64,000 nucleotides of DNA from Deltaproteobacteria bacterium (GCA_040218735.1 JAVJQW010000023.1:544001-608000), one strand, 5' to 3'; shown: positions 6,983 through 62,319, numbered from the stretch's first letter. Made by a program: numbers and translations. The notes: generated from the letters alone by a model not told the origin.

Positions 6983-9900
6983 TTGATCGAAGCCTCGAAT
7001 CCGCCTTCGGACACCGGGTCCCTGCGGACCCAACTGGGTCATGAGCGACCCACCCCATCGCCGACGAACGCGGCGCCCTCCGCTGGCATCTGCGATGCAG
7101 CGACGCGCGACGTGGGCGATCGACCGCACCGTGAGCATCTGCCGGCGCGCCGACCCCGCCGACGACCCGCGCCATCGGCGGCGACACCGCGTCCCACGAT
7201 GGCGCCTCCCTGCCCCTGCGCGTCCTGTACGAGCAAACGCGCGCAGCGCGCAGCGGCCGACGGCGTACGAGGTGCCGAGCGGTCGCTACCGCACCTGAGC
7301 CGAGTGCAGGCTGCGTTCGGCCCGCATGATCTGTCGGACGTGCGCGCGAAGGTCGGTGAGACGCCGACGACGCGGCTTCTTTCCGCGCACGCCTTCACCG
7401 CGAACAACCGAGTCGCCTTCGCGCGCGAACCGAATCTTCGACTCGCTGCACACGAGGCTGCGCACGTGGTTCAGCAACGCGCCGGCGTCGTCCCCGCGGG
7501 GCTCGGACGCCGCAACGATCGGTGGGAGCGACACGCCGACGCGGTCGCAAATGCCGTGGCCGGCGGGCGTTCGGCGACGCCCCTGCTCTCGGGACTTCCG
7601 CGCCGAGCTCCATCGAAGGACGCCGTGCAGCGTGAACACGAAGGCGGCACGGACACCGACCTCGGCGCGGTCGTCGACCGAATGGTCGCAGCGTACCGCA
7701 CGGGCGACGTCGCCGATGTCGCGGCGGAGCTTCAAGGCAAGAGCGTCACGCAGCTGCGGTTGATGCGAAGCCTGTTCGACGAGAACGCGAGCGCCGACCT
7801 CGCCCGATGGTTCGCATCCCGGACGAGCTCGACGACCGCGAGCACGATCGCAACGGTCGCGGGGGTCATCCTCGGAACGCTCCCGGGGGCGACGTTGCTC
7901 GCGCCCCTGATTCCTCTTGGAACGACGATGGTCGTGCAGTCGGGCGCGTCCGATCGAGCCGCTGCGGAGACCGGCTTGAGACGACTCTGGCCGGCGCTGC
8001 CGCTGATCGATCGCCTCGAGATCTACATGAACCAGTTCACGGAGATCGAGCAGGCACAGCTCGACATCATCCGATCGGCGAGCGCGGAGGAACGCAGCAC
8101 TGCACGGCGTGAGTACGCGCGACTGCTCGCGGTCTACGCGGCGATGTCGCCCGCCGAGGAGTACGAAGCCCGCAAGCTGATGGACCCCGACGACATGGAG
8201 TTCTCGGTCGGCCGGCTGATCGTTCGTGCGTCGGGTTTCTTCATGGACGATGAAGATCCGGTCTTCGACGCATTCATGGATCTCACACGCACGCAGCGCG
8301 AGTCTGTTTGGCGGACGCACAACGGCGGACTGTATCGACTGCTCAGCCTGCAGAGGTTCAACCTCCTCCAGACACTGGTCCACGGCACGGAAGCCGAGGC
8401 GCTCGTCGCGCGACTTCGCCTCGCCACCGACAACCGCATGGATGACATGGACGCCGTCGGGCGGGTGGTCGAGCGGGCGCGGCATCTCCTGCGTGAGCAA
8501 GCCACCTTGCGCGCTCAGATTGCGTCCGAGTCCCTGTCCGGCCCGGACCTAACGGCGGCCAACGCGCGCCTGCGCCAGCTCGGAGAGCTGGAGTCACTGC
8601 TCGAGGTCGAGCGAACGTCGGAAGGAGACATCGACACCACGACGTTCATGGGTCGGCTCTACCAAGCGTCCGGCTCCGGAGATCAGTTCGGCACGTGGGC
8701 GCGTTCGCTCGGTGCCGATCCGGAGGAGATCGCCAAACAGCGAATCATCGCGGCCTCCGGAGCCTTCGTGGACGCCTCGGCGATCCAGCGGGCTCTCATG
8801 GACATCCAGGTGCAGCTCGAGCCCGGTCCACCGGACGAGACCCCTGCGCAGCTCCAGATACGACAGCGCCGGGCGAACAACGATGCGCGGACTCGCGTCC
8901 TCGAGGACACACGAGTGCAAGCCATCTTGCGGAGGCTCGGCCACCAGGGGCCATCCGGAGGTGGCGAGCTCGCCGACGTTCGGCGTTTGGCGGGCGCGAC
9001 CCGATACGACGAGCTCGTGAGCGAGTTCGACGAGGCGCGGCGCGCGCTCAGATGGTCTCAGATGTACCGGGCGACCCTGGAGATCGCTCAGACGGACGCG
9101 TACCGATCGCAGTTTCGGACGGACTCGCGACAAGCGTGGTCGGCCTACTCCTGGCTCAACGGCGCACGCAAGGACATCGTCGACCGGATCCTCGACACGC
9201 GGCGGATCCCGATCAACCTCGTCCTCGAGTCGACGGGCAACGTCGAGTCTCTCCAGGCGATCCTCAGCACGCTCGACGAACGAACGCGCGGAGAGCTTCG
9301 CTTGGGGTACTGGCTGGACCGAACGGAGCGCACCCCCGCCGACGACACGCAGCGCACCGCGCTCACGGCGTTCCGCGACTTCGAGAGACGCGTGCGCGCT
9401 TCGCAGTCCTTGGGCGTGGCGAGTGTCGAAATCGAAACCGCGGCAGGCACCGTGAGCCGCTCGGGCGTTCAGGACATCCTCGATGCCGCGTTGGGCGCCG
9501 CCCCGACGGAGGAGGAGATGGACTCCGACGAGGGCCGATTCCGCGCGGCGGAGCTGCTCTACCATCGACAGCGCGAGCGCCTCGCGCTGCGACGCGGTCT
9601 TGCGGCCGCCTTCTCGGAGACCGACGAAACGATGGTCGCCGCAGCGCGAGAGTTCGCAGCGCTATGGCTTCGCATCGAGGGCACGGGCCGGGTATCGACC
9701 ACGAACTTCGCCGCCCTGTCGCGACTGCACGAGCGGTTCGAAGGTCGCGCGAGAGAGTTCGACGAGGCGAACAATCGAATCGGCGAGATCGCCGGGATCG
9801 TCGCGTCCACGGTCGCGGCGCTGGTGGTCGTCGCCGCGACGGGCGGCGCCGCCACGGTACCCGCGATCGCCGCCGCTGCGGCGGCCGGCGCGAGCGGACG

Positions 9901-11647
9901 TGTCTTCGCGCGGGCGATGTTCGGCGGCGACCACTACAACGCAGCCAGCGGCGAAGGGGCGCGCGACGCCCTCATCGGAGCGATCGACGGCGCACTCGCG
10001 GTTGCCTCGACCGCGCTGGCGGCGCGCGCCACGCGAATGATCGGTCTGTCGGGCCGCGCGCTCGCGCACGGGGCCGCCGAGACCGGCGGGCTGGCCGCGC
10101 AGCAGGCGACGCGCCCCTTCGGCCGGAGGCTCGCTGCGAGCGTGGTCGAAAACGCCATCGACGGTGTCGTCTCGGGCACGATCAGCGAGGGCGTCGTCGC
10201 GATGACGGACGACCGAACTTGGCGAAGCGGAATCTGGCAGGGCCTGATTCGTGTCGGGCAAGCCGCCCTGGTCGGTGGCCTGGCGGGGCTGGGTGGCGGC
10301 GCTGCGATGGGCGCGGTCACGACGATCGCCGGCCGGGGCGCGAGGGGGCTGCGCAATGCGCTGATCGGCGAGCCCGCCGAAGCCGCGATCGAGCGCGCAG
10401 GTGCACGCGAGACACTCGACGCGGCTCGACGCGCGAGCCAAGGCGGCAACTACGACGAAGCCCGTCGCCTCGTGGGAGAGCTCGAACCGCACTTGAACGC
10501 GCGGCAGATTCAATCGCTATTGAGCGAGCTCGGCGAGCCGCCACCTGGCGCGGTCCTCTTTCGACAGACGATCGAGCTGGATGGCGTGCGGCACACGCTG
10601 AAGTTGGTCGCTACGCAGGGCGACGAAGCGATCTTCGTCCTGTGCAGCAGCTGTCGCCACGCCGTGTCCGTCCTGTCGGACCTGATCCAGACCGCCGACG
10701 CCAGCGGACTGACCGCGCTCAAGCGAGAGTTGGAGATCGACCTCGCCCGGATGCAGGCGTTCGAGACCCGGCTGCGGAGCGGAACGCGGGTGCTCCCGCA
10801 GGAGCTTCGCGACGAGTTCACGCACCTCGCGGGTCGCCTACGCGGGCACGCGACGGCCAACCCCGCGATGGCCGACGATCTGAACCGCCTCTCCGGCGTT
10901 CGAATCGACGCGCCCGACAGCATCCCGGCGCCGACACCGCAGGCAGAGCAACGGATCCTGTCGCAGCTCCGGCGCGCCAGCATCCCAACGCCCGATGACC
11001 CGATGGTTCCACTGTCCGACTTGGTCGGGGCGTTCACTCGCGCGCAGGATCTCGGTACGGAGGTCGCGCAGCATTACCGATCGATGCTCGACCGACGGCT
11101 GGTCGACGATCTCGAATCGGTCATCCGGCGACGCCGCGCCATTCAGGCGACGGACCCCGCGGCACGGTCTGCGGCCGACACCGCATACCTCCACGGCGGA
11201 GCCGCGCGGGACCTCGAGACGATCGGGGATGCCGCGCGGGACGTCGGGATCGACCTGCGCCCGCTTCGCGGCATCCACGGGCCCACCGTCGATCCGGCCA
11301 CCCTCCGGGGCGACGCCGGGCGCGCCTACCGACACATCGTGTCGGGAGGCTCTGACGCGCGACATCTTCAGGTGGCGAGCCGCGAGGAGGCAGAGCAGCT
11401 GCTGCGCGCCCTCCGAGGCAACTTCCCCGACCTCGCCGACGCCACGGGCTTCATCCCGTCGCACTCCAAGAGGCTCCTGGGTTCGAAGGATCGAATCTTC
11501 CACTGGGACGACATGGTCGGGGCGGATGGCCGGACGTTGATCGACCACCCGACCGGACACGACCACGCGCGTTTTCGACACCTCCAGATCCACATTGGTG
11601 ATAGCCAATATCGTATCAACTGGGGCGACCCACTCTTCGACCCATGA
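6983..11647 (+). CDS. DUF4157 (eCIS-core) domain protein with hydrophobic central region and His-rich C-terminal putative toxin domain
   Basis: AHAFTANNRVAF...AAHEAAHVVQQ...WERHADAVA is DUF4157-like; Ala/Gly-rich hydrophobic stretch; C-terminal FHWDD...H..GHDH...HLQIH. Start uncertain: in-frame GTG at 7112 fits the sigma54 motif. Confidence 0.85.
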   Translation: MIEASNPPSDTGSLRTQLGHERPTPSPTNAAPSAGICDAATRDVGDRPHREHLPARRPRRRPAPSAATPRPTMAPPCPCASCTSKRAQRAAADGVRGAERSLPHLSRVQAAFGPHDLSDVRAKVGETPTTRLLSAHAFTANNRVAFAREPNLRLAAHEAAHVVQQRAGVVPAGLGRRNDRWERHADAVANAVAGGRSATPLLSGLPRRAPSKDAVQREHEGGTDTDLGAVVDRMVAAYRTGDVADVAAELQGKSVTQLRLMRSLFDENASADLARWFASRTSSTTASTIATVAGVILGTLPGATLLAPLIPLGTTMVVQSGASDRAAAETGLRRLWPALPLIDRLEIYMNQFTEIEQAQLDIIRSASAEERSTARREYARLLAVYAAMSPAEEYEARKLMDPDDMEFSVGRLIVRASGFFMDDEDPVFDAFMDLTRTQRESVWRTHNGGLYRLLSLQRFNLLQTLVHGTEAEALVARLRLATDNRMDDMDAVGRVVERARHLLREQATLRAQIASESLSGPDLTAANARLRQLGELESLLEVERTSEGDIDTTTFMGRLYQASGSGDQFGTWARSLGADPEEIAKQRIIAASGAFVDASAIQRALMDIQVQLEPGPPDETPAQLQIRQRRANNDARTRVLEDTRVQAILRRLGHQGPSGGGELADVRRLAGATRYDELVSEFDEARRALRWSQMYRATLEIAQTDAYRSQFRTDSRQAWSAYSWLNGARKDIVDRILDTRRIPINLVLESTGNVESLQAILSTLDERTRGELRLGYWLDRTERTPADDTQRTALTAFRDFERRVRASQSLGVASVEIETAAGTVSRSGVQDILDAALGAAPTEEEMDSDEGRFRAAELLYHRQRERLALRRGLAAAFSETDETMVAAAREFAALWLRIEGTGRVSTTNFAALSRLHERFEGRAREFDEANNRIGEIAGIVASTVAALVVVAATGGAATVPAIAAAAAAGASGRVFARAMFGGDHYNAASGEGARDALIGAIDGALAVASTALAARATRMIGLSGRALAHGAAETGGLAAQQATRPFGRRLAASVVENAIDGVVSGTISEGVVAMTDDRTWRSGIWQGLIRVGQAALVGGLAGLGGGAAMGAVTTIAGRGARGLRNALIGEPAEAAIERAGARETLDAARRASQGGNYDEARRLVGELEPHLNARQIQSLLSELGEPPPGAVLFRQTIELDGVRHTLKLVATQGDEAIFVLCSSCRHAVSVLSDLIQTADASGLTALKRELEIDLARMQAFETRLRSGTRVLPQELRDEFTHLAGRLRGHATANPAMADDLNRLSGVRIDAPDSIPAPTPQAEQRILSQLRRASIPTPDDPMVPLSDLVGAFTRAQDLGTEVAQHYRSMLDRRLVDDLESVIRRRRAIQATDPAARSAADTAYLHGGAARDLETIGDAARDVGIDLRPLRGIHGPTVDPATLRGDAGRAYRHIVSGGSDARHLQVASREEAEQLLRALRGNFPDLADATGFIPSHSKRLLGSKDRIFHWDDMVGADGRTLIDHPTGHDHARFRHLQIHIGDSQYRINWGDPLFDP
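7084..7099 (+). promoter_or_regulatory. sigma54 -24/-12 promoter motif
   Basis: TGGCATCTGCGATGCA (GG-N10-GC); in-frame GTG follows after 12 nt at 7112. Confidence 0.55.
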
Positions 11648-16500: not shown

Positions 16501-16854
16501 CTCCTGGAGCGAGGTCTTGGGTTCGTCGCCGGGGATCCGACCGGGGCCGTTCACGAGCGTCCCCAGGTTCCAACGTACGTCGCGCCTGAAGTAGCTGGCG
16601 TTGAGGTCGACGACGGTGAAGTTCAACCCGCGGTCCGTGCGGATCGGGCTGTCGGCGAGCCCCATGCCATCGAGCGTCCAATCGGCGAGGAACGCATGTT
16701 CGTTTCGTCCGGCCCGAGTGTCGAGATAGAGCGAACGCCACTCTTCCTCGTCGAGCGCTTCCAACGACGAGGTTCGCGTGTCCCACGCCTCGGCCGATCC
16801 GATGCTGGCGACGAAGACGAGCGTCGCGATCGCAAAGATCCGCGCGGCGCTCAC
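13594..16854 (-). CDS. Secreted zinc-dependent phospholipase C / P1-nuclease-fold protein with C-terminal Ig-like domains (~1086 aa)
   Basis: Likely GTG start at 16854 (GTGA overlap); signal peptide ending AEA followed by Trp; NEH, NSSHF and HFLQDRWSSGH motifs; IPT-like LVIAGRDLG segment. Confidence 0.6.
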   Translation of the reverse strand: MSAARIFAIATLVFVASIGSAEAWDTRTSSLEALDEEEWRSLYLDTRAGRNEHAFLADWTLDGMGLADSPIRTDRGLNFTVVDLNASYFRRDVRWNLGTLVNGPGRIPGDEPKTSLQERRLPAPAQFAGLPDVSYTLYDWINRHRLCPPLPPTADRHDDCHDYGLWMGAVFNSSHFGSQASLNYRHYHAIAVRLAKRAADLYRNIESVGPNEVVAWSDYVKEAELEALTYEAIGQHFLQDRWSSGHMWERWNGPDWAALLAPPIRTDPNASAYVGAIAGMIHGHEAVTAALAPGLSRDLLCSPEVVITGDPNNERRELHPMTWRRFPDGEQTFFGVGDFRATDFLEGTYRDVDGAQTYELDVLEQRRELFFCAAQGWTEVIRELPRIDGAYGTLKLQIREGHDLGTERRCWQGWATNRAMLRGLSSGLGIQAYGSASFDIEGPLGKLTGAFLRYEFSRPAEPPSHPVAELLDFLRRFGEGVFEALPSFTPDARDRTRLYWRLLKRARACPTCTDVARNQVVEGLDLPGLGTFEKTPPGNDPRLLHVPDFVEPVDFATLPTAPLADADWTRVDNRPGRDKASVFGFFNRAHTDWWCSEDATLSPRPILDALREVRSNTRDGLNVEVCAYLADRVYRGTDPRYTGARAEEHRYPIGDGTERIVAEPICARYGLVETDGDTDPDVPYYLDPGYVERPHRLARARETNVVGDKIPTHGYDSASNWCRRVPILELSPPMNAEDLVATANPLEDQTLVIAGRDLGDATGVLEVDGSTTLPPWLELVAWRDDALTIRVLETETVGDFELSVTRRAQSARRADLKSVGRFVLRLAPHEGAVVVHAGDVQSTRLPGGTPRTAVAAQFIAGSPFPSECSTTRAGDCTALVCAGEATPPRGEDAGRLTITGGAFDIAVDPGLLGRYSFQDTRRSVFVAGQPLHVDFAGTDTFPAFAADVLPPTPAVELTAPGVNGFSTIVVPPPGDPLPIAWQTAAGHTIDVRVQQLVPQYVSIVCSFDGALGTGVVPAALLDLMTPETHPRGTTTFVATAGRDVTRMPELEDGPRWRVRVRLSDYMWLTGGTLGLVTEQVPMTYLP

Positions 16855-17288
16855 GAGCTGCGCTCCCCGGCGCGCGGCGCGCACGGTGCATCGTCCGCGA
16901 CGAAGACCGCCTCGAAGGCGTCGAGCGCTTCCACGTCGTCGACGGCGTCGCGCTTCGCCCACTCTGCCTTGCAGACCTCGGGGCACTCCGCGACCTCGAC
17001 GCACGTCGCGAGTGATGTGTCGCTCGCCGCGCAGGCGCCGAAGGTGAGGACACATCGTGTCCACTGCACGATCGAGTCGTCGACGGCAGGATCGTAGACG
17101 AATCGAACGGCGCCGCCGTGCGTGCTGCCGGGGTGGATCGCGACTTCGACGCAGGCCTCGCAGGTGGGGTCGAAGGGTCGCGTCGTCGGAGCCCAGGGCT
17201 CCGCGAGCGTCGGGGGCGGCGCTTCGGTAGGTGCCTTGGAGGCACAGCCCACCGCGAAGAGGGTCAGGAGCAGAGTCTTGGATCGCAT
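16851..17288 (-). CDS. Small Cys-rich lipoprotein (145 aa)
   Basis: MRSKTLLLTLFAVGC lipobox, several paired Cys, translationally coupled to the PLC-like gene. Confidence 0.75.
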   Translation of the reverse strand: MRSKTLLLTLFAVGCASKAPTEAPPPTLAEPWAPTTRPFDPTCEACVEVAIHPGSTHGGAVRFVYDPAVDDSIVQWTRCVLTFGACAASDTSLATCVEVAECPEVCKAEWAKRDAVDDVEALDAFEAVFVADDAPCAPRAGERSS

Positions 17289-17301: not shown

Positions 17302-17317
17302 TGCACGGACCGCGCCG
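17302..17317 (-). promoter_or_regulatory. sigma54 -24/-12 promoter motif
   Basis: CGGCGCGGTCCGTGCA (GG-N10-GC); ATG at 17288 follows after 13 nt. Confidence 0.55.
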
Positions 17318-17347
17318 TGTTCTTCGCCGCCATCCGGGCGCCGTGTT

Positions 17348-17390
17348 GTGCACGGTCGTGCACGACCGTCGAGCACGACCGTGCACGACC
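17348..17390. repeat. Four near-tandem 10-bp repeats (GTGCACGACC consensus) containing an 18-bp palindrome; probable regulator binding site
   Basis: GTGCACGGTC GTGCACGACC gtc GAGCACGACC GTGCACGACC; palindrome ACGGTCGTGCACGACCGT at 17352-17369; between two divergent sigma54 motifs. Confidence 0.75.
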
Positions 17391-17417: not shown

Positions 17418-17433
17418 TGGCACCGCGAGTGCA
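17418..17433 (+). promoter_or_regulatory. sigma54 -24/-12 promoter motif
   Basis: TGGCACCGCGAGTGCA, close to consensus TGGCAC-N5-TTGCW; ATG at 17447 follows after 13 nt. Confidence 0.7.
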
Positions 17434-20388: not shown

Positions 20389-21228
20389 CTAGCGAACGCC
20401 TTCCGGCAGGCCGATCCGGTCGAGGTCCGTCGTGCGGCGCCACGTATCGTCCAGGGTCCTCAGCCTCGACAGCTGGGCGCGCTCGTCGCCACGAATCGCG
20501 CGTGGCGTGCGACCCGGCGCGATCGGTGTGGCGCTACGCAGCGCCGGTCCATTCACCCACATCGGTCGGGGGCCGTAGTTCTGGATGCCCACCATCGCGC
20601 GCCCGACGTAGCGGCCCGACGCGAGGACCGAGAAGCGCACCCAGCGCACGTCGTCGATCGTCACCGCGGTCTCGGGGTGCTCCTCGAGGTCGACCGCGAC
20701 GGCGCCCGCGTCCGCCTCGAAGACGAAGAACGTGACCTCGTCTCCGCGGAACGGCGCGTCCCCCAACGACGCGTCGAAGCCGAGCCAGACCGAAGCGTTG
20801 AATCCGACTCCGGTGAGCCAACCCATCCCGTAGATCGCGACCGTGGCCGGGTGGGTCTCGGTCCCGGGGATCCGCACGACCTCGCGCCGATCGGAGGGGG
20901 TGTCGATGAAGATCTGTCGTTGGATCGGCGGCGGCGCCGTCGCCATCGGGTTCTGATCCACCGCCGGCCAGCCCGCGCTGATCAGCTTGCTCTCGAAGTC
21001 CGGCGCGTTGAGCTGGTTGTCGTCCTCGGCGCCGGGGAGCAGCTCGTACTCGACGAGCGTTCGGATCCGCGCGCCGCCGTCGGGCGGATCGACCGTCTCC
21101 TCGCCGGCGTCCCGCGCGACGCCGGCGTCCTTCATCGGCGGATTCGTTTCGCCGTCGTCATCGTCCTCGCTACAGGCCACCACCGCCACCGCCATGGTCG
21201 CCACCGCGAACCACCGTGCCCGCTGCAT
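20389..21228 (-). CDS. Hypothetical lipoprotein (~279 aa)
   Basis: MQRARWFAVATMAVAVVAC lipobox; start overlaps the stop of the upstream peptidase-like gene. Confidence 0.7.
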   Translation of the reverse strand: MQRARWFAVATMAVAVVACSEDDDDGETNPPMKDAGVARDAGEETVDPPDGGARIRTLVEYELLPGAEDDNQLNAPDFESKLISAGWPAVDQNPMATAPPPIQRQIFIDTPSDRREVVRIPGTETHPATVAIYGMGWLTGVGFNASVWLGFDASLGDAPFRGDEVTFFVFEADAGAVAVDLEEHPETAVTIDDVRWVRFSVLASGRYVGRAMVGIQNYGPRPMWVNGPALRSATPIAPGRTPRAIRGDERAQLSRLRTLDDTWRRTTDLDRIGLPEGVR

Positions 21229-48494: not shown

Positions 48495-48514
48495 CGTTCG
48501 TCCTTTCTCGGTCC

Positions 48515-50578: not shown

Positions 50579-50580
50579 CT

Positions 50581-52608: not shown

Positions 52609-53030
52609 CAGGGCCTCTCACTTCCCTCCCGCAGGTAGAGCGGGAACACCTGGTTGAAGATGGCGTTGTTCTCGCGGAGTCGATAACTCAGCGAGGCGAC
52701 GAGGCGGGTCTCGATCTCCTCGTCCTCGGCGACCGAGACCTCCAGCACGTCGATACGCGGTTCGTGCGCGGCGAGCGCGTCGCGGATCGCACGTTCGAGG
52801 TGGTCGGCCGTCGCGGAGGTCTTGGCTTCGAAGAGGAGCTGCGGCACCTCCGATCCGAACTCCGGGCGCATCACACGCTCGTTCACACCCGTCCCCAGGA
52901 TGATCCGAATGGCCTCCTGGACGTCGCGCTCCGCTTCGACCATCGCGAAGCGGCCGTTGGCGTCGATGCGTACCGGGAAGGCCCAGCCCACCCCCAGCTC
53001 TCTGCGGCGATCGGAAGTCCTCATCATCAA
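52608..53030 (-). CDS. GPW/gp25-family baseplate protein (Afp9-like)
   Basis: LGVGWAFP...IRIILGT..NERVMRPEFGS...EPRIDV...NQVFPLYL. Confidence 0.95.
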   Translation of the reverse strand: MMMRTSDRRRELGVGWAFPVRIDANGRFAMVEAERDVQEAIRIILGTGVNERVMRPEFGSEVPQLLFEAKTSATADHLERAIRDALAAHEPRIDVLEVSVAEDEEIETRLVASLSYRLRENNAIFNQVFPLYLREGSERP

Positions 53031-53611
53031 CCCTTCTTGAGCGCGATGCTCGAGGCGACGACCTCGACCGTCGTCGCCTTGACCTTGATGCTGTTGGCGT
53101 TGTCGTCGAGGACGATCTCGTTGCCCCCGGCGCTCTTCACCGTGACCTTCTTGCCCTCGCCGGCCAGCTCGATCGTGTGTTCGTTGGCGATCGTGATGGT
53201 CTTGGATTTCTCGTCGATGAGTACCTTTTGTTTGTTCTTGGTCTCGATCAGGACCTTCTCCTCGCCTTCGACGTCAGATACCAGGACCTGAGTTCCGGCC
53301 TTCGTGTGAAACCTGCGCTCATCGACCTTCGTGGTCGGCGGCTTGCGTTTCTTCGAATAGATCGACCCGAGGACGAAGAGCATCTTGGGATCACCGGCGT
53401 AGTAGGCGACGACGACCTCGTCGCCCTTCTCCGGCACCGAGTAGGCGCCGTGCGTCTCCCCGGCGAACGGCATGAGGACGCGACACCAGTCCGTCTCTCG
53501 GTCCTTCTCGAGCGGAAGCTTGAGCCGCACCCGTCCGAGCTGCTCCTTCTTGTCCTCGCGGTCGACGACGATGCCGACCGTGAGCCCCATGGACTTGGAT
53601 GCGATCGTCAT
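53027..53611 (-). CDS. Baseplate assembly protein V (gp5 OB-fold + short beta-helix spike)
   Basis: GIVVD...LGRVRLKLP...TDWCRV...PEKGDEVVVAY..GDP...VLGSIY followed by beta-strand repeats. Confidence 0.92.
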   Translation of the reverse strand: MTIASKSMGLTVGIVVDREDKKEQLGRVRLKLPLEKDRETDWCRVLMPFAGETHGAYSVPEKGDEVVVAYYAGDPKMLFVLGSIYSKKRKPPTTKVDERRFHTKAGTQVLVSDVEGEEKVLIETKNKQKVLIDEKSKTITIANEHTIELAGEGKKVTVKSAGGNEIVLDDNANSIKVKATTVEVVASSIALKKG

Positions 53612-54714
53612 GCGTACGCCTTCCTGACCGAGAACGTCGTCTGGTAGCCGGACTGATCGATGCGATGGGTCGACTCGGTCACGTAGTAGGCGCCATCGAA
53701 GCGCTTCCCGAGGCCCTTCAGCTCGATGTTCACGCCGGCACGCAGGGAGGGAATGCCGACCGTCTGTCCGGAGCCGGTGACGAAGGAGTGCGCGTTTCGG
53801 CGCAGGACGGACTCGGCCAGAGTCTGAGCCTCCTCGTCGCTGAGTACGGCTTCCTTGAGGATGACCTCCTCTTTGCCCTTGCCGAACGCCGACTCCAGGA
53901 CCTCACCCGCGTTCTTGCCCTTTTGCTTGAGGTCGTTCAGCTTCGCGCGCGTCGCCGACTTCTCGATGAGTCGACCCTCGATCGGGTGCCAGCACCGCAC
54001 CGTCACCTTCGAGACCTGACGCGCCAACGTGAGGGACGGCGCAAAGGACATCAGCGACTTGCCGTACTCGAGGGTGAGGACGGGGCTGTTGCCTTCGCGG
54101 GTGTGTACGAAGTGGAGGTCGCCGTCTCGGAGGAAGACCTCGAAGTCGAGACGCTTCGCGCGCTCGAGGAGGAAGGAGATGTCGTCCTTGTTGTCCTGCG
54201 GGACGACGTCGTGTCGTTCCTTTGTCGAGTCGATGAGTGCCCCGAACCCATTTTCGCGGGCGATCTCCCCCGCGATCTCGGCGTCGGTCTTCTTCTCCCA
54301 ACTCTTGGTCTTCGGCTGGTTTCGGAGTCGGTGCAGGAGGTCGAGGCCGCGCACGACCAGCGTGGAGGACCCGGTCGGAGGGAACTGCGGGTCGAAGGCG
54401 ATGACCTCCCCCTGCAGCATGCGCTGCATCTTCGGGGCATCCGCGTAACCCATCTCGAGCTCGAACTGCTTGCCGAGGTCGATGGGGTCACCACCGTCCG
54501 AGTACTTGTACGTGGGTGACTCGCTCCGGCTGGTGTGACGGACGTTGTTGAGCACCAGCTCGACGGCAGCGAGGTCCTTGATGCTGTCCTTGAACTGAAC
54601 GCTCAGGACGTCACCCGCCTCTTCGTGCAGCTCCTTCCCGCCGATTCGGAACCGGAACTGCGGCGCGTAGAACCGAGGCGCCTTCCCGGTTCCCTGGTCG
54701 AGTACGACGTCCAT
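53608..54714 (-). CDS. Phage late control D / gp27-like hub protein
   Basis: ELEMGY, KTDAEIA.EIA, Q..KDDISFLLERAKRLDFE, GIPSLRAG, GLGKRFDGAYYVTESTH. Confidence 0.92.
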   Translation of the reverse strand: MDVVLDQGTGKAPRFYAPQFRFRIGGKELHEEAGDVLSVQFKDSIKDLAAVELVLNNVRHTSRSESPTYKYSDGGDPIDLGKQFELEMGYADAPKMQRMLQGEVIAFDPQFPPTGSSTLVVRGLDLLHRLRNQPKTKSWEKKTDAEIAGEIARENGFGALIDSTKERHDVVPQDNKDDISFLLERAKRLDFEVFLRDGDLHFVHTREGNSPVLTLEYGKSLMSFAPSLTLARQVSKVTVRCWHPIEGRLIEKSATRAKLNDLKQKGKNAGEVLESAFGKGKEEVILKEAVLSDEEAQTLAESVLRRNAHSFVTGSGQTVGIPSLRAGVNIELKGLGKRFDGAYYVTESTHRIDQSGYQTTFSVRKAYA

Positions 54715-55410
54715 CTACGCCTCCTCCTCGATCCGCGGCACCCGGAGGATCGCGCCCGGGGAGAGATCGGCCGCGTCGCGGAGGTTGTTGGCCGTGGCGA
54801 TCTCGCGCCACTGCGACGCATCACCGTACGCTTCGTGTGCGATGGCCGGCAGCGTGTCCCCGTGGCGAACGACGACCGTCTTGGTGCGGTCGGGGGAGCG
54901 CAGGTTCATCGCGCCGAGCTGCTCGATGACGGTCCGGTAGCGCTTCACGCCCAGAGCCACGTTCACGCGGAGCGGCGTCCCGTCCGGGTCGAAGAGGACG
55001 AACTGGCGCCGCACGGACTCGATGACGCCCTCGACGATGTTCTTGCTCCACTCGAAGACGACGATCGGCGGTGCGTGGCGCTCACCGTCGACCCGCGCGA
55101 GCTGCTGGAGCTTCTCGGCGTGTTTGGAGGCATCGCGCCCCGGTGTCCCCGGTGCCTCGTTGGTGGTGTCCACCAGGAGCTCGAACGTCAGCTTCTCGGT
55201 GTTGCCGCGTACGAACTGGATCACGGGCGCCTCGAGGCCGGGAATGCCGATCTCGGCGAAGGCGTTCGACTGCTCCATCGTGTACTCCTTCGGGTTGAAG
55301 AGCACGTCGACGGCGAGGTACTTGTCGTCCTTCTTTCCCTTGGGAAAGATCTTCATGCGTGTCAGCGGCTGCCGGTCAGCGAAGGGTTTGGTGAAGGAAA
55401 CCATTCTCAC
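54715..55410 (-). CDS. CIS tube-initiator protein with C-terminal LysM domain (Afp7-like)
   Basis: VLFNPKEYT, HAPPIVVFEW, LFDPDGTPLR, VVRHGDTLPAIA...YGDASQWREIATANNL. Alternative ATG at 55404. Confidence 0.92.
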   Translation of the reverse strand: MRMVSFTKPFADRQPLTRMKIFPKGKKDDKYLAVDVLFNPKEYTMEQSNAFAEIGIPGLEAPVIQFVRGNTEKLTFELLVDTTNEAPGTPGRDASKHAEKLQQLARVDGERHAPPIVVFEWSKNIVEGVIESVRRQFVLFDPDGTPLRVNVALGVKRYRTVIEQLGAMNLRSPDRTKTVVVRHGDTLPAIAHEAYGDASQWREIATANNLRDAADLSPGAILRVPRIEEEA

Positions 55411-55598
55411 TCACCTCCCAAGAGGTCGGGATCGCGTTGCTGGATCTTGCGCTCCTCTTCGAAGCGCCGCGCCGAATCTCGGCGCATCTGCTCGAGGAAC
55501 GCATCACGGACATCCACCGGATCCGGGCCACCGTGGTCCCTGGAGCTCTCCTCGGTGACGGCGATACGCGCGTCGAGATTTCCGATGATCAGCGGCAT
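55407..55598 (-). CDS. Small eCIS protein (Afp6-like positional equivalent, 63 aa)
   Basis: MPLIIGNLDARI N-terminus and charged C-terminal helix, between second tube and tube initiator. Confidence 0.65.
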   Translation of the reverse strand: MPLIIGNLDARIAVTEESSRDHGGPDPVDVRDAFLEQMRRDSARRFEEERKIQQRDPDLLGGE

Positions 55599-55599
55599 T

Positions 55600-56115
55600 T
55601 CACGTCAACCCGATATTCGAGAGCCCGAAATGATCGAGCCCTTCGTGAGCGATGGTGAGTGTTTCGGTCGCTACGCCGTTCTGACCCGCGTTGAGACCAG
55701 GGCCGGTCCATTTCAGCGGGAGCCCCTGCCGGAACATCCACGCTTGCGCTGGGATCCCTCCGTTGGTGAGTAGGACGATGATTCCGTCCTTCCGTTGGTA
55801 GACGCCGTCGCTGACCTTCCGGACCCAGGACCAGAGGTCGGAGGTGATGAGCAACCCGCGCTTCAGAACGAGGTCGGAGGGTTTCGTCCGCGTCGGGAGG
55901 CGGCGCACGTATTTGTTCTGACCGCCCTCGGGATAATCCAGCGTCTCGAGGCTCATCTCGATACCGGAGCACTCCGAGAACCCACCACCGAGGAGGGCCA
56001 ACGCAGCGCCCACCGTGGCCTTGGTGTCGAGCAGACCGGCGCTGTCGCGGAGCATCACGACGTACCGGAATGCGGGGAGCGGGAGCGGATTGAGGCGACC
56101 CGGGCGTTGAACCAT
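55600..56115 (-). CDS. Second tail tube protein (Afp5-like), locus B
   Basis: PAFRY...GGFSECSGIEM...YPEGGQN...LVLKRGL...WTGPGLNA...VATETLTIAHEGL; the start overlaps the sheath stop (track ORF to 57933 is over-extended). Confidence 0.92.
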   Translation of the reverse strand: MVQRPGRLNPLPLPAFRYVVMLRDSAGLLDTKATVGAALALLGGGFSECSGIEMSLETLDYPEGGQNKYVRRLPTRTKPSDLVLKRGLLITSDLWSWVRKVSDGVYQRKDGIIVLLTNGGIPAQAWMFRQGLPLKWTGPGLNAGQNGVATETLTIAHEGLDHFGLSNIGLT

Positions 56116-58193
56116 CACGCGCCTCCCTGAATGTCGTCGAGGACGGCGGACCCGTCTCGGGAGAACGCGACCCGAATGAGGATGAACTCGGTGGGGATCG
56201 CGGGCGCGATCTCGACCTCGGCGACGACCATGCCCTGGTCCCGCTCGGCCGGCGTCGTCGTGGAGTCGTCGACGCGAACGCTGTACGACTCTGCGCGCGT
56301 CGTGCCGGCGAGCGCGTTCTTCCGCCACAGCTCGTCGAGGACGGCGTCGATGGTGAGGTGGATGCGGAAGCGAACGTCGGCGTCGTTCGGCTCGAAGACA
56401 AACGTCGACCCGAGCGCGCGCAGCACCCGGCGAACGTAGGCGACGACGCGGCTCGCCGGGATGAAGCGATCCGGGCGGCTCCAAGTCGCGAGGGAACGCA
56501 CGCCGTGGACCAGCGCGCCGCGCCCCGGGATCGCGTGGACGACGCCGAGGTGCGCGGCGTTGAGATCCGCACGGTCGCGATCCGGAAGGACCTCGGCGAT
56601 TCCCACGGCGCCTTCGAGCGTGATGTTGGCGAAGCGCGCACCGGGCGTCCCCTCGCGTGTCGTCGCGGCCATCAGACCTGCGACGTGACCCGACGGCGGA
56701 ACGAGGATGACGCGGCGCCCGCGCGTGCCGGGATCCAGGACGCGGACCCAGGGGTGGAACATCGCGCAGTGCGGGAGCGCGCTCGCGTGCCCTTCGAGCG
56801 CCACTTCGGATCGCATGACGTGGGTCGACGCGATCACCTCGGCCGGGGTGAGCATCGGCAGCGGGTCGAGGAGGAGCGTGCGGTCCAAGCCGCGGTCCAA
56901 CCCCAGCTCCGAGGACGGGAGGGACATCGCGATGAGGTCGCGCTGCAGGGCGGAGATCGCCGACCCGAATCCGGGCATCTGAGACTCGGGCACCACCTCC
57001 GGAGGGATGCTCGGCGCGGGAGTCGGGACGGCGCTCTCGGTCTCGTTCCGCGGCGCGCAAGGAGGCGGCGGTTCGGGTGGAAGCTCGTCGCGCGGGTCGT
57101 CGACCGGCGGTCTCGAGCAGTCGTGCGGCTCGGGCGCGGCGGGCAGCATGAGATCCGGGAACGTGACGATACTGGGCGCAGGGTGGGTCATCATCGCGCG
57201 CCCCGCAGTGAGTACGACGTTGGCGTCCATCGCCTTCGTACCGTCCACGCCGCCGGTGAGTTGGACCCGCCATTCGGGGACATCCGCGACCGCTTCGAGG
57301 GATGGCGTTCCGTTCCATGGGTTGGGTAGCGGCGCGGGCATCGTCTGGGGCGGGAACGACGTGGGGTAGCCGTCGGGCAGCGCGCTGCGGAGGAGCGACG
57401 AGTTCCCGGGTCGCTGCTGTCCCAGCGACAGCGCAATCTCGGAGTCCTCCGCGTAGGGAGTCCAGGACTCGGGGACGGCTGGGCTCCACTCGGTTTGCGG
57501 CCCGCTCGGCATGAAGTATCGCCACACCGCGCGCGGGCTCTCCCACGCGAGCGACAGTTCGCGGTGACGCTCGCGTCCCGCGGCGCTGTCGACGATGACT
57601 TCGACGGTGGGATCGATCACCTCGACGAGGTCGACGGACGGATCCACGGCGGCGTGGGGCCACGCGAACAACCCACCGGTGCCGGCCACCAGGCGCCCGA
57701 ACGTGGGGGGGGATCCCACGCCTCGACGGAAGCGAACGACGTCCCCTTCCCGCAGGCCCGCCGCGAGCGTCGGGAACCCGGCCACCGTACGTCGTCGTCG
57801 CACGCGGAGCGGCATCGCGATCCGTGTGGCGTTGCCCCAGCGCCCCGCGGAGCTCGCGGTGAGTCCGATCGTCGCGCCCGTCGCCGGGTCGATGACTTCG
57901 GCGCGTGCGACGCGCGTCGTGGTCGACGCCCAACGCAGCACGTAGGCCGTCGAGCCTCGGTTCTGAAAATGAGCGTACGCCGCGAGTGGAGTGAGCGCCT
58001 GGCGCTGGGTACCGCGAATGGGTAGGAACCCACCGAACTCGAGCTTGAAGCCCCCCCAGTCCTCGACCCGTCGAGGAACCAGGATGGGCCCGCGCTCGAG
58101 GATGCCCGCGAAGCCGACGATGTCGGCGCGCAAGGCATCCCCGGACCCGCGCGGGGCCTCCTCCTGGACGATTTCGACTCCCGGCGCGAGCAT
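56115..58193 (-). CDS. Second tail sheath protein, locus B (~692 aa)
   Basis: MLAPGVEI...RADIVGFAGILERGP; LTGGVDG; PPSGHVAG; VFEPND; IAPAIPTEFILIRV; ATG 58193 overlaps the tube stop. Confidence 0.92.
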   Translation of the reverse strand: MLAPGVEIVQEEAPRGSGDALRADIVGFAGILERGPILVPRRVEDWGGFKLEFGGFLPIRGTQRQALTPLAAYAHFQNRGSTAYVLRWASTTTRVARAEVIDPATGATIGLTASSAGRWGNATRIAMPLRVRRRRTVAGFPTLAAGLREGDVVRFRRGVGSPPTFGRLVAGTGGLFAWPHAAVDPSVDLVEVIDPTVEVIVDSAAGRERHRELSLAWESPRAVWRYFMPSGPQTEWSPAVPESWTPYAEDSEIALSLGQQRPGNSSLLRSALPDGYPTSFPPQTMPAPLPNPWNGTPSLEAVADVPEWRVQLTGGVDGTKAMDANVVLTAGRAMMTHPAPSIVTFPDLMLPAAPEPHDCSRPPVDDPRDELPPEPPPPCAPRNETESAVPTPAPSIPPEVVPESQMPGFGSAISALQRDLIAMSLPSSELGLDRGLDRTLLLDPLPMLTPAEVIASTHVMRSEVALEGHASALPHCAMFHPWVRVLDPGTRGRRVILVPPSGHVAGLMAATTREGTPGARFANITLEGAVGIAEVLPDRDRADLNAAHLGVVHAIPGRGALVHGVRSLATWSRPDRFIPASRVVAYVRRVLRALGSTFVFEPNDADVRFRIHLTIDAVLDELWRKNALAGTTRAESYSVRVDDSTTTPAERDQGMVVAEVEIAPAIPTEFILIRVAFSRDGSAVLDDIQGGA

Positions 58194-58642
58194 CAGATCA
58201 TCTCGATCCCTTCGTGCGCGAGCTCGAGGGTCTCCAGGGCCGTCTCGTTCTTGTTGGCGGCCATCGCGGGCCCCATCCACTTCACCGGCCAGGCCTTCTT
58301 GAGCTTCCAGGTCGCGACGACCCCTCGCTTCTCGTCGAGGAGGTGGATCTTCACCGAGGTCTTGCCCTCGCTGTCGTCGGCGTTGCCGATGCCGCCGACC
58401 ACCTCGTCGCGCCATCGAAAGAGATCCGAGGCGCCGATCACGCCGCGCTTGAGCACGACGTTGGGGTGCTTCCGGATCCCCGGAATCTTGCGCATCACCG
58501 TGTCTTCGTCCCCGGTTCGGTACTCGACGACGCCCTGTTCGCTGTCGATTCCCGACACCTCCGAGAACGCCGCGATGATTCCGTTGTCGAACTCGACGCG
58601 GAAATTGAATGACCCGTATGGGTTGTTCCTCTCGACCGCCAT
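58193..58642 (-). CDS. Tail tube protein (gp19/Afp1-like), locus B
   Basis: NPYGSFNFRVE...FSEVSG...VEYRTG...VVLKRG...AWPVKWMGP...ETLELAHEG. Confidence 0.95.
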   Translation of the reverse strand: MAVERNNPYGSFNFRVEFDNGIIAAFSEVSGIDSEQGVVEYRTGDEDTVMRKIPGIRKHPNVVLKRGVIGASDLFRWRDEVVGGIGNADDSEGKTSVKIHLLDEKRGVVATWKLKKAWPVKWMGPAMAANKNETALETLELAHEGIEMI

Positions 58643-58658
58643 GATTTATACCTCCTGA

Positions 58659-60725
58659 TCAGCCCTGGCTGTCCGCGGTGAATTGACCGATTCGGAAGAT
58701 CACGAACTCGGCGGGTTTGGTCGGAGCCACACCAATCTCACAGATCAGGCGGCCGTTATCCAAGTCATCCTGACTCATCGTGGAGCGATCACACTTCACG
58801 TAGAAGGCGTCGTCCGGTTTGGTTCCGAGGAGCGCGCCCGTGCGCCACACCGACTCCAGGAACGTCTCGATAGTGCTCCGGACGGCGGCCCAGAGCTGCT
58901 CGTTGTTCGGTTCGAACACGACCCACTGCGTGCCCTTGTCGATCGAGTGCTCGAGGAAGATGAACAGCCGTCGAACGTTGACGTACTTCCACTCCGGGTC
59001 ACTCGAGATGGTGCGCGCGCCCCACACGCGGATGCCGCGTTTGTTCTCGCGGAAGTCACGGATGACGTTGATGCCCTCCGGATTCAGGACCTCCTGGACG
59101 CCGTGCAGCACCTTCGTCACGACGTCGCGTGCGCCGCGTACGACCTCGTTGGCGGGCGCCTTGTGTACGCCGCGGTCGACATCGGAGCGGGCGTAGATGC
59201 CCACCATCGGCCCCGACGGGGGCACCTCGATCTCCCGGGCCGTCTGCGGGTCCGAGCTACGGATCCACGGGTGGTAGATCGCGGCGTACTTGCTGTCGAA
59301 ATTGCCGCGGTGTCCGCGGATGGTCGCGGTCTCGGCGCCGCTCGGGCCGTCGAGGACCGCGAAGCGGTACTTCATCAGCTCGCAGTGGGTGATCAGCGCG
59401 TCCTGCACGGCCGGCGCCGTCACACCGGGGACGGCGGTGATCGAAATCGCCTCCTCGTCTTCGAGCGCCGCGATACCGCTGCGCTGACCCGGGTCGGCGC
59501 CGGAGTTGCCGATGTAGTCGGGGACGTCGGGGAGCTGGTCGTCGGTCCCCACCGCGAGCCCGGCGACGGGCGCCAGCCACTCGGGGTGACCGTTCGTCGT
59601 GGTGGGGTGCGTGTCGAGCGGTGCGGCTGGATCGAAACCCGTCGGCGCCGTCATCGTGATGAGTTTGGAGTCGTCGACCTTCTTCCAGTACGTGCGGGTC
59701 GCGTTGAACTCGGCGGCCTGCGCGGCCGTGAACCCGAGGGTTGCACCGGCCGCGACTTGTCCCCAGGCGCCGCGGAAGGTCTCGACCGTCGCGCCCCAAC
59801 TCACGATGAGGTCGACTTCGCTCAGGAGCGCGACGAGGCGCTCACCGGGGCCCGCGGCGGTCGGCGCGCCGGCGGTTGGGGTGACGATTTCCAGCGTGTT
59901 GCCGGCGATCTTCGCGACCGTGGCGTAGGTGGCTTCGACCAGGTCACCTGTGGCGGTCGCTTCCTTGCGCAGCTCGATCACGCAGCCCGGGTAGAACGCG
60001 GACGCCGACGCCACTGCGATGGCGTTGCCGGAGACGGAACCCACCTCTACGGGGGGCCCGTAGGTCGGCCGCACCTGCACGCCAACGCGCTCGGCCCACA
60101 CGCCAGGCTCCTTGGCGCGGAGCGTGGGTCCGCCGGCCGTTGCGGCGCGGAGACGGACGTACGAGTTCGCCGCCTTGTGTTCGCCCTCGGCGGTGGTGAT
60201 GGGGTTGGCCAGCCCGATCTGGCGGGTCGACGAGATCCCCTTCGAGACCGCGACCGGCGTCGCAGGGTCGTCTCCGCCGAAGAGCGCGACGGTCGTCGAG
60301 TCGTACCCGCGGAGCGTCGTCACGCCGATCTTGTCCATACCCACCGGCGCGTTGGCGCGGAGGCGAGCGAAGATGCCGTGCTGGAGCTGGAGCTCGCGCA
60401 GGTCGACGGCGTTTCCACCCTGGGGCGGGTGCGCCTTGTAGACTCGGCACACGAAGGCACGCTTGCCTCCGTTGTCGAAGAACTGCTTCATCGCGATGGG
60501 CAAGTGTCCGTGTTCGCCGCCCGGTCCCGCTCCGGTCTTGCGCGGAATGAACCCACCGAAGTTTCGCTGGTACTCACCGAAACTCGTCACGAGCTTGGGG
60601 AGCCCCTGAACGGGGCCGCGTTCGGTCATGCCGACGAACCCAGCGGTACTGGTAGATACGCCTTCGATGGTTTTTTTGCCGGGTCGTTCTTCGATGTACA
60701 CGCCTGGCGCGAGATATTCGGGCAT
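58659..60725 (-). CDS. Tail sheath protein, locus B (688 aa)
   Basis: MPEYLAPGVYIEE...EGVSTSTAGFVG; RGVHKAPANE; WGART; YVNVRRLF; KPAEFVIFRIGQ. Confidence 0.96.
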   Translation of the reverse strand: MPEYLAPGVYIEERPGKKTIEGVSTSTAGFVGMTERGPVQGLPKLVTSFGEYQRNFGGFIPRKTGAGPGGEHGHLPIAMKQFFDNGGKRAFVCRVYKAHPPQGGNAVDLRELQLQHGIFARLRANAPVGMDKIGVTTLRGYDSTTVALFGGDDPATPVAVSKGISSTRQIGLANPITTAEGEHKAANSYVRLRAATAGGPTLRAKEPGVWAERVGVQVRPTYGPPVEVGSVSGNAIAVASASAFYPGCVIELRKEATATGDLVEATYATVAKIAGNTLEIVTPTAGAPTAAGPGERLVALLSEVDLIVSWGATVETFRGAWGQVAAGATLGFTAAQAAEFNATRTYWKKVDDSKLITMTAPTGFDPAAPLDTHPTTTNGHPEWLAPVAGLAVGTDDQLPDVPDYIGNSGADPGQRSGIAALEDEEAISITAVPGVTAPAVQDALITHCELMKYRFAVLDGPSGAETATIRGHRGNFDSKYAAIYHPWIRSSDPQTAREIEVPPSGPMVGIYARSDVDRGVHKAPANEVVRGARDVVTKVLHGVQEVLNPEGINVIRDFRENKRGIRVWGARTISSDPEWKYVNVRRLFIFLEHSIDKGTQWVVFEPNNEQLWAAVRSTIETFLESVWRTGALLGTKPDDAFYVKCDRSTMSQDDLDNGRLICEIGVAPTKPAEFVIFRIGQFTADSQG

Positions 60726-60734
60726 CGTGTTCTC

Positions 60735-61328
60735 CTAAGGTATGAGTATGGGCTGAACCGAAGTGACTCGATTCAACTCGACGGTAGGGATGTTTGTTGT
60801 TTTGGCTCCGGACGGCCACGTCACGATGACGGTCGCGCTGGATGCTGCGAGCTTCTCGGGCACGTGAACGACGAACTGCCAGCGTTGGGGGAACTCTTCC
60901 TTGGTGACGTAGACGGGCACCGTGTGGTTCGGGACCGACGGCGCCGGATCGACGAGCTGAACGGTGACGTCCTCAGGCGCGAGGTTCGCCACTGCGTTGT
61001 GCACTTCGCCCACCACGCGCGTGTCTTCAGGGCTGAACTGGAACGTCGCGCGTCGGTGGAGCTGAAGTGTCTGCGGTGAGGGCATCGGCGAGACGACCGT
61101 GGGGAGCTTCTTCGTCACGTAGTCGCGAGCCCACACCACGACGTCGTAGGTGCCCGGTGGGGTGTCGAGGACGACGAGATCTCCGCTCAGGTTCGTGACG
61201 ACGGGATAGAACATCCGCCGGTCGCGTAGCGTGTTGCTCGGGCTCTTGGGGACGAGCAGCTCCACGGAGGAGCTGCGAATCCGTCTCCCGGTCGAATAGT
61301 CGACCACCTTGAATCCGAGGTTCGGCAT
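60735..61328 (-). CDS. eCIS accessory protein (prealbumin/carboxypeptidase-regulatory-like fold, 197 aa)
   Basis: Between Pvc16 and sheath; VVDYSTGR, PPGTYDVVVWARDY. Confidence 0.7.
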   Translation of the reverse strand: MPNLGFKVVDYSTGRRIRSSSVELLVPKSPSNTLRDRRMFYPVVTNLSGDLVVLDTPPGTYDVVVWARDYVTKKLPTVVSPMPSPQTLQLHRRATFQFSPEDTRVVGEVHNAVANLAPEDVTVQLVDPAPSVPNHTVPVYVTKEEFPQRWQFVVHVPEKLAASSATVIVTWPSGAKTTNIPTVELNRVTSVQPILIP

Positions 61329-61340
61329 GACTTTCGTCCC

Positions 61341-61964
61341 TCAGGGGAGCGGGACCTCGGGCGGCACTTCGCTGGGGTTCGGGGCGCCGATGGTGTGCGG
61401 CGCGTTGCTGCGCTCCTGCACGATGCCGGAGGTGAAGACACGCTGAGACGCGATCGGGATGACGCGCGCCTTGTAGTAGAGCGCGAGCTTGAAGCGCTTG
61501 AACCCGAACGTCGTCCAGATGCGCGCCTGATCTTCGATGCTCGGGTTGTGCAGCGAGAGCTGCACCGTGTCGGCCGGATCCCAGCCGGCGCCGAGGTACA
61601 CGGGCTCGAGCTCGGCGTGGTCGTACATGACACGCAGGACGTCGCCGAGGAGCTGGTGCTCGTCGGTCGTGGAGGCCGCCCAAGCACACACCATGAAGTC
61701 GAGGTCGACGACACACGGCGGGACAACCTGCTGCGAGGTCCCGCCCACGCTCGAGACGACCTGGTGGTCGCGGTTCTTGAGGAAGGGGTTCTCGGAGATG
61801 TTGTAGAGAAAGACCGTCAGGCGCGGGCGCGGGATCGGGTCGGGGAGCAGATCGATGGACTCGATGAAGATCTGGGACGCGGTGATGCTGAGGAGCGAGA
61901 GATTCTCCTGCAGCACGCGCTTGAACGCGTCGCTCACCTGATAGATCGCCCGAGCATCCGCCAC
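61341..61964 (-). CDS. Pvc16/Afp16-like (DUF4255) protein, locus B
   Basis: RLTVFLYNISENPFLKN...VDLDFMVCAW...DEHQLLGDVLRVMYD...IWTTF...LALYYKARV. Confidence 0.9.
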   Translation of the reverse strand: MADARAIYQVSDAFKRVLQENLSLLSITASQIFIESIDLLPDPIPRPRLTVFLYNISENPFLKNRDHQVVSSVGGTSQQVVPPCVVDLDFMVCAWAASTTDEHQLLGDVLRVMYDHAELEPVYLGAGWDPADTVQLSLHNPSIEDQARIWTTFGFKRFKLALYYKARVIPIASQRVFTSGIVQERSNAPHTIGAPNPSEVPPEVPLP

Positions 61965-61966
61965 GG

Positions 61967-62290
61967 CTAGTCCTCCGAGAACGCTTCCAACAGCGCGTGG
62001 GGATCGTGGGCGCCGCGTCCGGCCACATGGATGCGGGTGGCGCCCGCGAGGTAGGCGTCGTGGTGGTCTTCGGGCGCCTCGCGGTCGGTGATCAGCCCGC
62101 GGACGCGGACGTGAAGCGGGATGCGCCCGAGCAGCGCCACGCCGGCGTCGTGGTGCCCGCGCGCGTCGATGACGACGGTCTCATCCGAGCCCTCCGTCCA
62201 GAAGCGCGAGGACGACAGATCGACGTAGACGACCCCGTCGGCGGAGCTCCACCGCCCCTCCCCCGCAACGTCCAGTAGCACCGTGCGCAT
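61967..62290 (-). CDS. Hypothetical protein heading locus B (107 aa)
   Basis: ATG 13 nt after a sigma54 motif; ends 2 nt before the Pvc16 start and carries its GGAGG site. Confidence 0.6.
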   Translation of the reverse strand: MRTVLLDVAGEGRWSSADGVVYVDLSSSRFWTEGSDETVVIDARGHHDAGVALLGRIPLHVRVRGLITDREAPEDHHDAYLAGATRIHVAGRGAHDPHALLEAFSED

Positions 62291-62303: not shown

Positions 62304-62319
62304 AGCAGGAAGCGATCCA
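62304..62319 (-). promoter_or_regulatory. sigma54 -24/-12 promoter motif for eCIS locus B
   Basis: TGGATCGCTTCCTGCT (GG-N10-GC); ATG at 62290 follows after 13 nt. Confidence 0.5.

Follow-up and report, generated by a model that had tools for sequence, protein, structure and literature searches.

Six sigma54-type promoter motifs in a stretch of bacterial DNA stand at a near-fixed 12–14 nt from a start codon, which raises the question of whether they are promoters whose transcripts have almost no leader. The stretch, here called the window, spans 64 kb at 68% GC and carries two extracellular contractile injection system (eCIS) loci on the minus strand, locus A (about 1–6914) and locus B (34441–62290), with separate Pvc16, sheath and tube genes in each. 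It also encodes a DUF4157 protein, an MshEN-kinase, an ECF sigma factor and a sigma54 enhancer-binding protein with a GAFTGA motif. We treated the source organism as Myxococcota-like, given that relatives of the kinase are labelled Deltaproteobacteria, Myxococcota, Polyangia and similar; protein-level relatives at 94% and 87% identity were found, the first of them labelled 'Deltaproteobacteria bacterium'. An Rfam search of the window returned no match, and a sigma70 consensus scan of 16500–34500 returned no promoters.

Candidate 16-mers were scored on the sigma54 −24/−12 consensus, TGGCACG-4N-TTGC(T/A), as given in PMC7910581, with a maximum of 7; the score was fixed before outside sequence was fetched. 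The window holds 1,135 GG-N10-GC 16-mers, and the three top scores (6.5, 6.0 and 5.5) belong to the sites at 23434, 17418 and 7084. Seven 16-mers score 5.0, including that at 17302, and the other six have no start codon at 12–14 nt. Consensus flanks around the GG at −24 and the GC at −12 give the six sites scores of 4.5–6.5. All six were found where the original prediction had placed them, with spacers of 12, 13, 13, 13, 14 and 13 nt to a start codon (five ATG and one GTG, at 7112), and four lie in divergent regions with no source of read-through. The motifs and the genes they precede are as follows.

7084..7099, plus strand: sigma54-type −24/−12 motif, score 5.5, spacer 12 to GTG 7112
7112..11647, plus strand: DUF4157/eCIS_core protein (PF13699, E=8e-9), 1,511 aa from GTG 7112, putative cargo adjoining eCIS locus A
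17302..17317, minus strand: sigma54-type motif, score 5.0, spacer 13 to ATG 17288
16851..17288, minus strand: 145-aa predicted lipoprotein with a lipobox-like Cys at residue 15 and no Pfam match, opening an operon that runs to 13594
17418..17433, plus strand: sigma54-type motif, score 6.0, spacer 13 to ATG 17447
17447..18709, plus strand: 420-aa predicted exported Cys-rich protein with a signal-peptide-like N-terminus and no Pfam match
23434..23449, minus strand: sigma54-type motif, score 6.5, the best in the window, spacer 13 to ATG 23420
21228..23420, minus strand: 730-aa predicted exported protein, heading a two-gene operon with 20389–21231
25749..25764, plus strand: sigma54-type motif, score 4.5, spacer 14 to ATG 25779
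25779..27017, plus strand: 412-aa predicted lipoprotein with a lipobox-like N-terminus, its nearest Atlas cluster auto-named 'Lipoprotein'
62304..62319, minus strand: sigma54-type motif, score 4.5, spacer 13 to ATG 62290
34441..62290, minus strand: eCIS locus B operon, with a 107-aa first gene, Pvc16, sheaths, tubes, baseplate and AAA ATPase

No Pfam match was obtained for a 1,334-aa gene in locus B (35559–39563), which has a strong strand AT skew, or for the 83-aa gene that opens locus A (6663–6950). This first gene of locus A has a GG-N10-GT variant 20 nt before GTG 6914, without a Shine-Dalgarno sequence (SD), and does not fit the 12–14 pattern; this type of variant occurs at E. coli pspA (PMC4591121).

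Support for the start codons differs among the sites. By eye, lipoprotein-type signal peptides follow 17288 and 25779, and signal-peptide-like ends follow 17447 and 23420; a crude hydrophobicity rule flags 17288, 17447 and 25779 and does not flag 23420. ATG 62290 is the earliest start past an in-frame stop, and the 107-aa gene that it opens has one relative (96% identity) with the same predicted start, which is therefore no independent evidence. GTG 7112 is plausible, not pinned, with ATG 7199 and TTG 6983 as alternatives: 117 residues precede the conserved HVVQQ motif from GTG 7112 and 88 from ATG 7199, and 116 homologs span 66 to >600 residues, which covers both values. The database copy of this protein starts at GTG 7304, inside a conserved block that begins near residue 40–45, and because that start cuts into the block the true one must lie further upstream. 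The effector site at 7084 is the weakest of the six. In-frame GTG/TTG codons upstream of 17447 and 23420 have anti-SD energies near −6, and a GTG downstream of 62290 has one of −6.9.

SD sequences are absent from the motif-linked starts, as had been claimed. Their anti-SD duplex energies range from +0.9 to −3.4 kcal/mol, so that none of six reaches −5 kcal/mol, compared with 19 of 27 operon-internal genes; internal genes of eCIS locus B are mostly SD-led. Motifs scoring ≥4.5 stand at 12–14 nt in 6/18 hand-called operon-first genes, a count that relies on the geometry of the original prediction for three starts (7112, 17288 and 17447). Across 2,000 dinucleotide shuffles, every 3-nt window from 0 to 100 was counted and the maximum was 2, which upholds the view that the fixed spacing is the signal. 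A motif-blind caller gave 3/24, recovering only 23420, 25779 and 62290.

Outside the window, one genome scan with a kinase alignment gave at least 601 stretches, of which the best 80 were kept as loci. We used 72 of these best-ranked loci (982 kb, mostly from Myxococcota) and dropped eight with GC ≤55%, for which the codon model was weak or failing. The loci were chosen by a myxobacterial-type kinase, not by taxonomy, and their depositor labels include Proteobacteria, Enterobacterales and Thermoanaerobaculia; no close relative of the window was found among the best 80 of the at least 601 stretches (best identity 45%). Starts came from a codon-based caller blind to upstream motifs, with one start per operon-first gene and 521 starts in the 72 loci. 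A histogram counting every plausible start was noisy at low score and had a spurious decoy peak; it was replaced by the motif-blind starts.

Over 0–100 nt, the 72 loci contain 14 motifs with a score ≥5, of which two, three, one and one have spacers of 12, 13, 14 and 15 nt. The 12–14 window thus holds 6/14 at score ≥5 (P = 1.7e-6) and 7/25 at score 4.5 (P = 6e-6). Widened to 12–15, a decision made post hoc with the data already viewed, it holds 7/14, against a shuffle mean of 0.24 and a maximum of 2 in 200 shuffles; these matches come from five separate loci (locus-level P = 6e-5). Decoys with the half-site spacing changed by −1 or +1 gave 0/7 and 0/3 at 12–15 at score 5, and 1/29 at score 4.5. 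A stricter pattern in the loci gave 3/6 at the canonical half-site spacing versus 1/23 at other spacings, and 0/2 on a plasmid of Sandaracinus amylolyticus. Three of the loci matches carry anti-SD energies of −6.0 to −6.6. On the Sandaracinus plasmid (200 of 210 kb), two of eight strong motifs lie at 12–13, and in a third case the start at spacer 13 is annotated in the record itself (40917 in L082); an M. stipitatus plasmid gave 0/1. The short-spacer genes encode a pilin, a response regulator, a ccoN-ccoO fusion, an esterase, a chitinase-family protein and lipoproteins. Starts of the pilin and the receiver protein are pinned, since their domains begin at residue 2 (N_methyl) and residue 7 (receiver) and neither gene has an upstream in-frame start. 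A distance histogram of the kind proposed with the original prediction, run on the 72 loci, peaks at 12–15 nt, above shuffled controls. Counts are small throughout; the positional signal is real and replicated.

Controls from other lineages displayed no such peak. GC-rich Proteobacteria (11 loci, 494 kb, 311 starts) had 0/7 motifs at 12–15, all being at ≥25 nt, and Actinobacteria (5 loci, 232 kb) had 0/1. Gemmatirosa (6 loci, 282 kb) had no motif with a score ≥5 near 153 operon-first starts and is mute on spread beyond Myxococcota. The comparison of Myxococcota with the proteobacterial control is not significant alone, either at score ≥5 (9/23 versus 0/7, P = 0.07) or at score 4.5 (12/42 versus 1/12, P = 0.25). 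A pooled Fisher test including an E. coli table gave P = 1e-5, a value that combines ChIP data with motif scans and should be taken as indicative only. In that table, all 41 protein genes behind ChIP promoters lie ≥18 nt from the predicted start site (PMC4591121 Table 1), and characterized sigma54 promoters differ from those described here in having such leaders.

Are these motifs sigma54 promoters? Enrichment is confined to the canonical half-site spacing, and the window encodes an enhancer-binding protein with GAFTGA, both of which are consistent with the identity originally proposed; rpoN was not found among the window's Pfam matches. Opening of the closed complex at sigma54 promoters depends on an enhancer-binding protein at an upstream site, and each promoter needs its own activator. 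Three further features of the window bear on activation.

31989..33218, minus strand: sigma54 enhancer-binding protein, AAA+ with GAFTGA (PF00158, E=2e-59), Fis-type HTH and no recognized sensor domain
17345..17390, no strand assigned: three imperfect 23-nt repeats, 10–13 bp apart and partly palindromic, between the divergent sigma54 motifs 17302 and 17418, a candidate enhancer
62357..62404, no strand assigned: direct repeat of 9 nt plus an inverted repeat of 10 nt, upstream of site 62304 (the predicted promoter of eCIS locus B), a candidate enhancer or activator site

The repeats at 17345–17390 may be an enhancer common to both divergent motifs. No convincing upstream repeats were found at 7084, 23434 or 25749. 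The two candidate enhancer repeats differ in sequence, and the idea of a single sigma54 regulon was overstated; it is more fitting to view the sites as several sigma54 promoters, each set controlled by a different activator. The activator at 31989–33218 is encoded just outside eCIS locus B, past its distal end, and a sigma54 motif precedes the first gene of that locus. We offer sigma54 control of an eCIS as a lead, reminiscent of T6SS activators. The sites share with known sigma54 promoters the half-site sequence, the fixed spacing, the intergenic position, a nearby GAFTGA activator and, upstream of 17302/17418 and 62304, candidate repeats. A bias toward exported proteins is shared as well, at 9/27 versus 81/648 by a crude rule (compare PMC3162934). 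We consider it likely that these are sigma54 (RpoN) promoters from which near-leaderless mRNAs arise, in lineages where leaderless expression is already favoured.

The predicted leader follows from start-site geometry measured in other species. Two rows of Leptospira dRNA-seq data give 10 nt from the 16-mer to the mapped start (PMC5243855 supplement), and the E. coli sRNA glmY implies 11 nt (PMC4591121). Subtracting these 10–11 nt from spacers of 12–14 would leave leaders of about 1–4 nt, and of 4–5 nt at spacer 15, in line with the short leader proposed for sigma54 transcripts. Where leaderless is defined as a leader of 5 nt or less (PMC12754779), this promoter geometry would place the transcripts in that class. 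Strict leaderless transcripts start on the A of AUG (PMC3616915), and canonical geometry predicts 1–4 nt, not a zero-nt leader, at the six sites.

Reading the six sites as near-leaderless sigma54 promoters fits the data, and it missed a wider context in the same window, where four further operon-first genes have TANNNT 7–8 nt before the start. Among the starts at 20335(−), 23521(+), 30733(−), 34023(+) and 27074(+), four have TANNNT at that distance and the fifth has CANNNT at 6 nt, and none has an SD; we read these as sigma70-type leaderless genes. TANNNT occurs at 4–11 nt before none of the six sigma54-linked starts. The four TANNNT genes suggest that the organism is broadly leaderless and that sigma54 follows the same habit. 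Across the 72 loci, TANNNT lies 6, 7, 8 and 9 nt before 15, 9, 15 and 13 starts (52/521), versus about 2.6 per position. The ratio of TANNNT at 6 to that at 7–9 is 15:37 in Myxococcota loci (L001–L080) and 10:4 in Actinobacteria (L091, L093 and L104–L106), where it peaks at 6 (P = 0.005). In M. xanthus, Cappable-seq places the start of MXAN_1525 at −1 (PMC8844925).

No score ≥5 motif in the loci has a called start at a spacer of 0–11, including 10–11, which implies either that a few extra 5' bases are present or that transcription begins further along, on the ATG. We favour tolerated short leaders. True zero-leader transcripts, for which polymerase at these sigma54 promoters would start 1–4 nt further downstream than in E. 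coli or Leptospira, on the A of ATG, seem unlikely. Truly leaderless mRNAs would need such a shift given the empty 0–11 range; at 17302 and at one L070 site no purine occurs from position 10 until the A of ATG, and C. jejuni sigma54 motifs lie 8–13 nt from mapped starts (PMC3847290). Against this, a purine at position 10–11 is usable as a canonical start at most sites, and the sigma70-type class is likewise spread over 6–9 nt, unlike that of Actinobacteria, which argues for tolerated short leaders. A C precedes ATG in 15/27 cases, about as often as in all operon-first genes (302/648), and the base at −1 does not separate zero-leader from short-leader models.

Near-leaderless sigma54 promoters are also to be weighed against sites that do not drive the genes at all. 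The motif might bind sigma54 or another protein as a repressing, roadblock or operator site, with transcription of the genes coming from a more distant upstream start or a sigma70-family promoter. A roadblock requires no fixed distance to the start codon, however, and a long leader without an SD would leave translation unexplained. Same-strand genes 107 and 142 nt upstream of 25779 and 62290 could read through, but the four other sites, in divergent regions, have no such source. TANNNT is missing at 4–11 nt from all six, although a CANNNT hexamer lies 9 nt before one start (17447). In E. coli, sigma54 binds at many intragenic sites (PMC4591121 Table 2); even so, we judge a non-driving role very improbable. 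Chance or a coding-frame artefact, in which, at spacer 13, the ATG shares its frame with a GTG/TTG in the −12 box and the motif would be N-terminal coding sequence in GC-rich DNA, is scarcely credible: the 1,135 GG-N10-GC 16-mers, in-frame GTG/TTG six codons upstream at several sites and a decoy peak of 19 at one distance in the all-starts first pass (attributed to the kinase gene that the loci share) speak for it, but motifs with a score ≥5 lack 3-nt periodicity (0, 10, 1 and 0 at spacers 10, 13, 16 and 19, window sites included), spacers 12, 14 and 15 do not keep the frame, no peak is seen in GC-matched Proteobacteria, Actinobacteria or Gemmatirosa, and shuffles and decoys are flat.

For the near-leaderless sigma54 promoters that we favour, we propose that an enhancer-binding protein bound upstream would open the closed complex at the motif and that RNA would start 10–11 nt past the 16-mer, placing the start codon 1–5 nt, mostly 2–3 nt, from the 5' end. 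With no room for an SD, the first gene would be translated by a leaderless-type route in which the ribosome engages the near-terminal AUG, and downstream operon genes would use ordinary SD initiation. In this organism and some other Myxococcota, and not only at these six genes, promoters of both sigma families would be set against start codons, with SD-led sigma54 promoters kept too.

The pattern is unevenly distributed. By depositor labels, the 80 starts of Kofleriaceae/Haliangiales included four strong sites and were the richest in TANNNT (20/80), and genomes of unspecified group had three strong sites among 245 starts. No strong match at 12–15 was found in Myxococcaceae (0/69 starts) or Polyangiaceae (0/58). 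The short-spacer sigma54 pattern is patchy, being present in Haliangiales and Sandaracinus and unseen in Myxococcaceae and Polyangiaceae. The Sandaracinus plasmid (L081–L084) has short-spacer sigma54 motifs yet TANNNT at only 1/103 starts, so the two leaderless classes need not co-occur. SD-led sigma54 promoters also exist, at 52 nt in L059, at 40 nt in L040 and twice on the Sandaracinus plasmid. Two pilin genes, in L070 (13277–13309, Haliangiales) and L033 (16616–16697, Sandaracinaceae), have spacers of 14 versus 63; these candidate orthologs have similar bases right after the −12 box and are 68% identical over 47 residues. Tentatively, Haliangiales, Sandaracinaceae and unclassified lineages may possess sigma-independent SD-less leaders of 1–5 nt in a substantial fraction of operons (at least 10/18 operon-first genes here) and for about half of the strong gene-proximal sigma54 promoters in the sampled loci, with promoters able to change mode over evolution, an idea prompted by the pilin pair; we put this forward as a possibility of less than even weight.

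Leaderless genes with sigma70-type promoters are known; new here would be a leaderless-type class with sigma54 promoters. Genes led by a Pribnow box in Actinobacteria and Deinococcus-Thermus (PMC3160421, PMC6028130, PMC12340547) are described with the same fixed, short distance from promoter to start in operon-first genes, an absent SD there and SDs retained for internal genes; the element here is −24/−12 rather than −10. The leaderless pexR of myxobacteria is from the same phylum and has a proposed leader of 5 nt or less, and its short-leader promoter is sigmaA-type, unlike sigma54 here; the sigma54 promoters of ahpC and katB are not called leaderless in the text of that paper (PMC12754779). 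Leaderless mRNAs of B. japonicum yielded an extended −10 motif rather than one for RpoN. Reported sigma54 leaders are 16, 22 and 27 nt in Leptospira, which is rich in leaderless mRNAs (PMC5243855), and M. xanthus mrpC starts at −58 (PMC8844925). In the literature covered, which was mostly open-access, we found no description of sigma54 promoters as a leaderless class, and single published cases may exist. The survey of TA-led genes used 20 bp upstream and states only Pribnow-like signals as found (PMC3160421), group C of GeneMarkS-2 models a Pribnow box (PMC6028130), and distances were put into 100-nt bins in a broad sigma54 survey (PMC3162934). With leaderless surveys limited to 20 bp or the Pribnow box and the sigma54 survey binned so coarsely, the class would be invisible to them.

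If our reading is correct, enhancer-controlled myxobacterial genes, including those for pilin, cbb3 oxidase, lipoproteins and a contractile injection system, would have no 5' leader for control by riboswitches or small RNAs, and their control would sit wholly at the level of the activator. These promoters would offer a natural test of the maximal distance of an AUG from the 5' end for SD-free initiation and, given a fixed start codon, of where sigma54 starts RNA. A sigma-independent short-leader mode, if true, would imply ribosomes or initiation factors adapted to a non-terminal AUG without an SD. As the fixed spacing marks both promoter and start codon, it would improve gene-start calls and the prediction of sigma54 targets in an activator-rich phylum.
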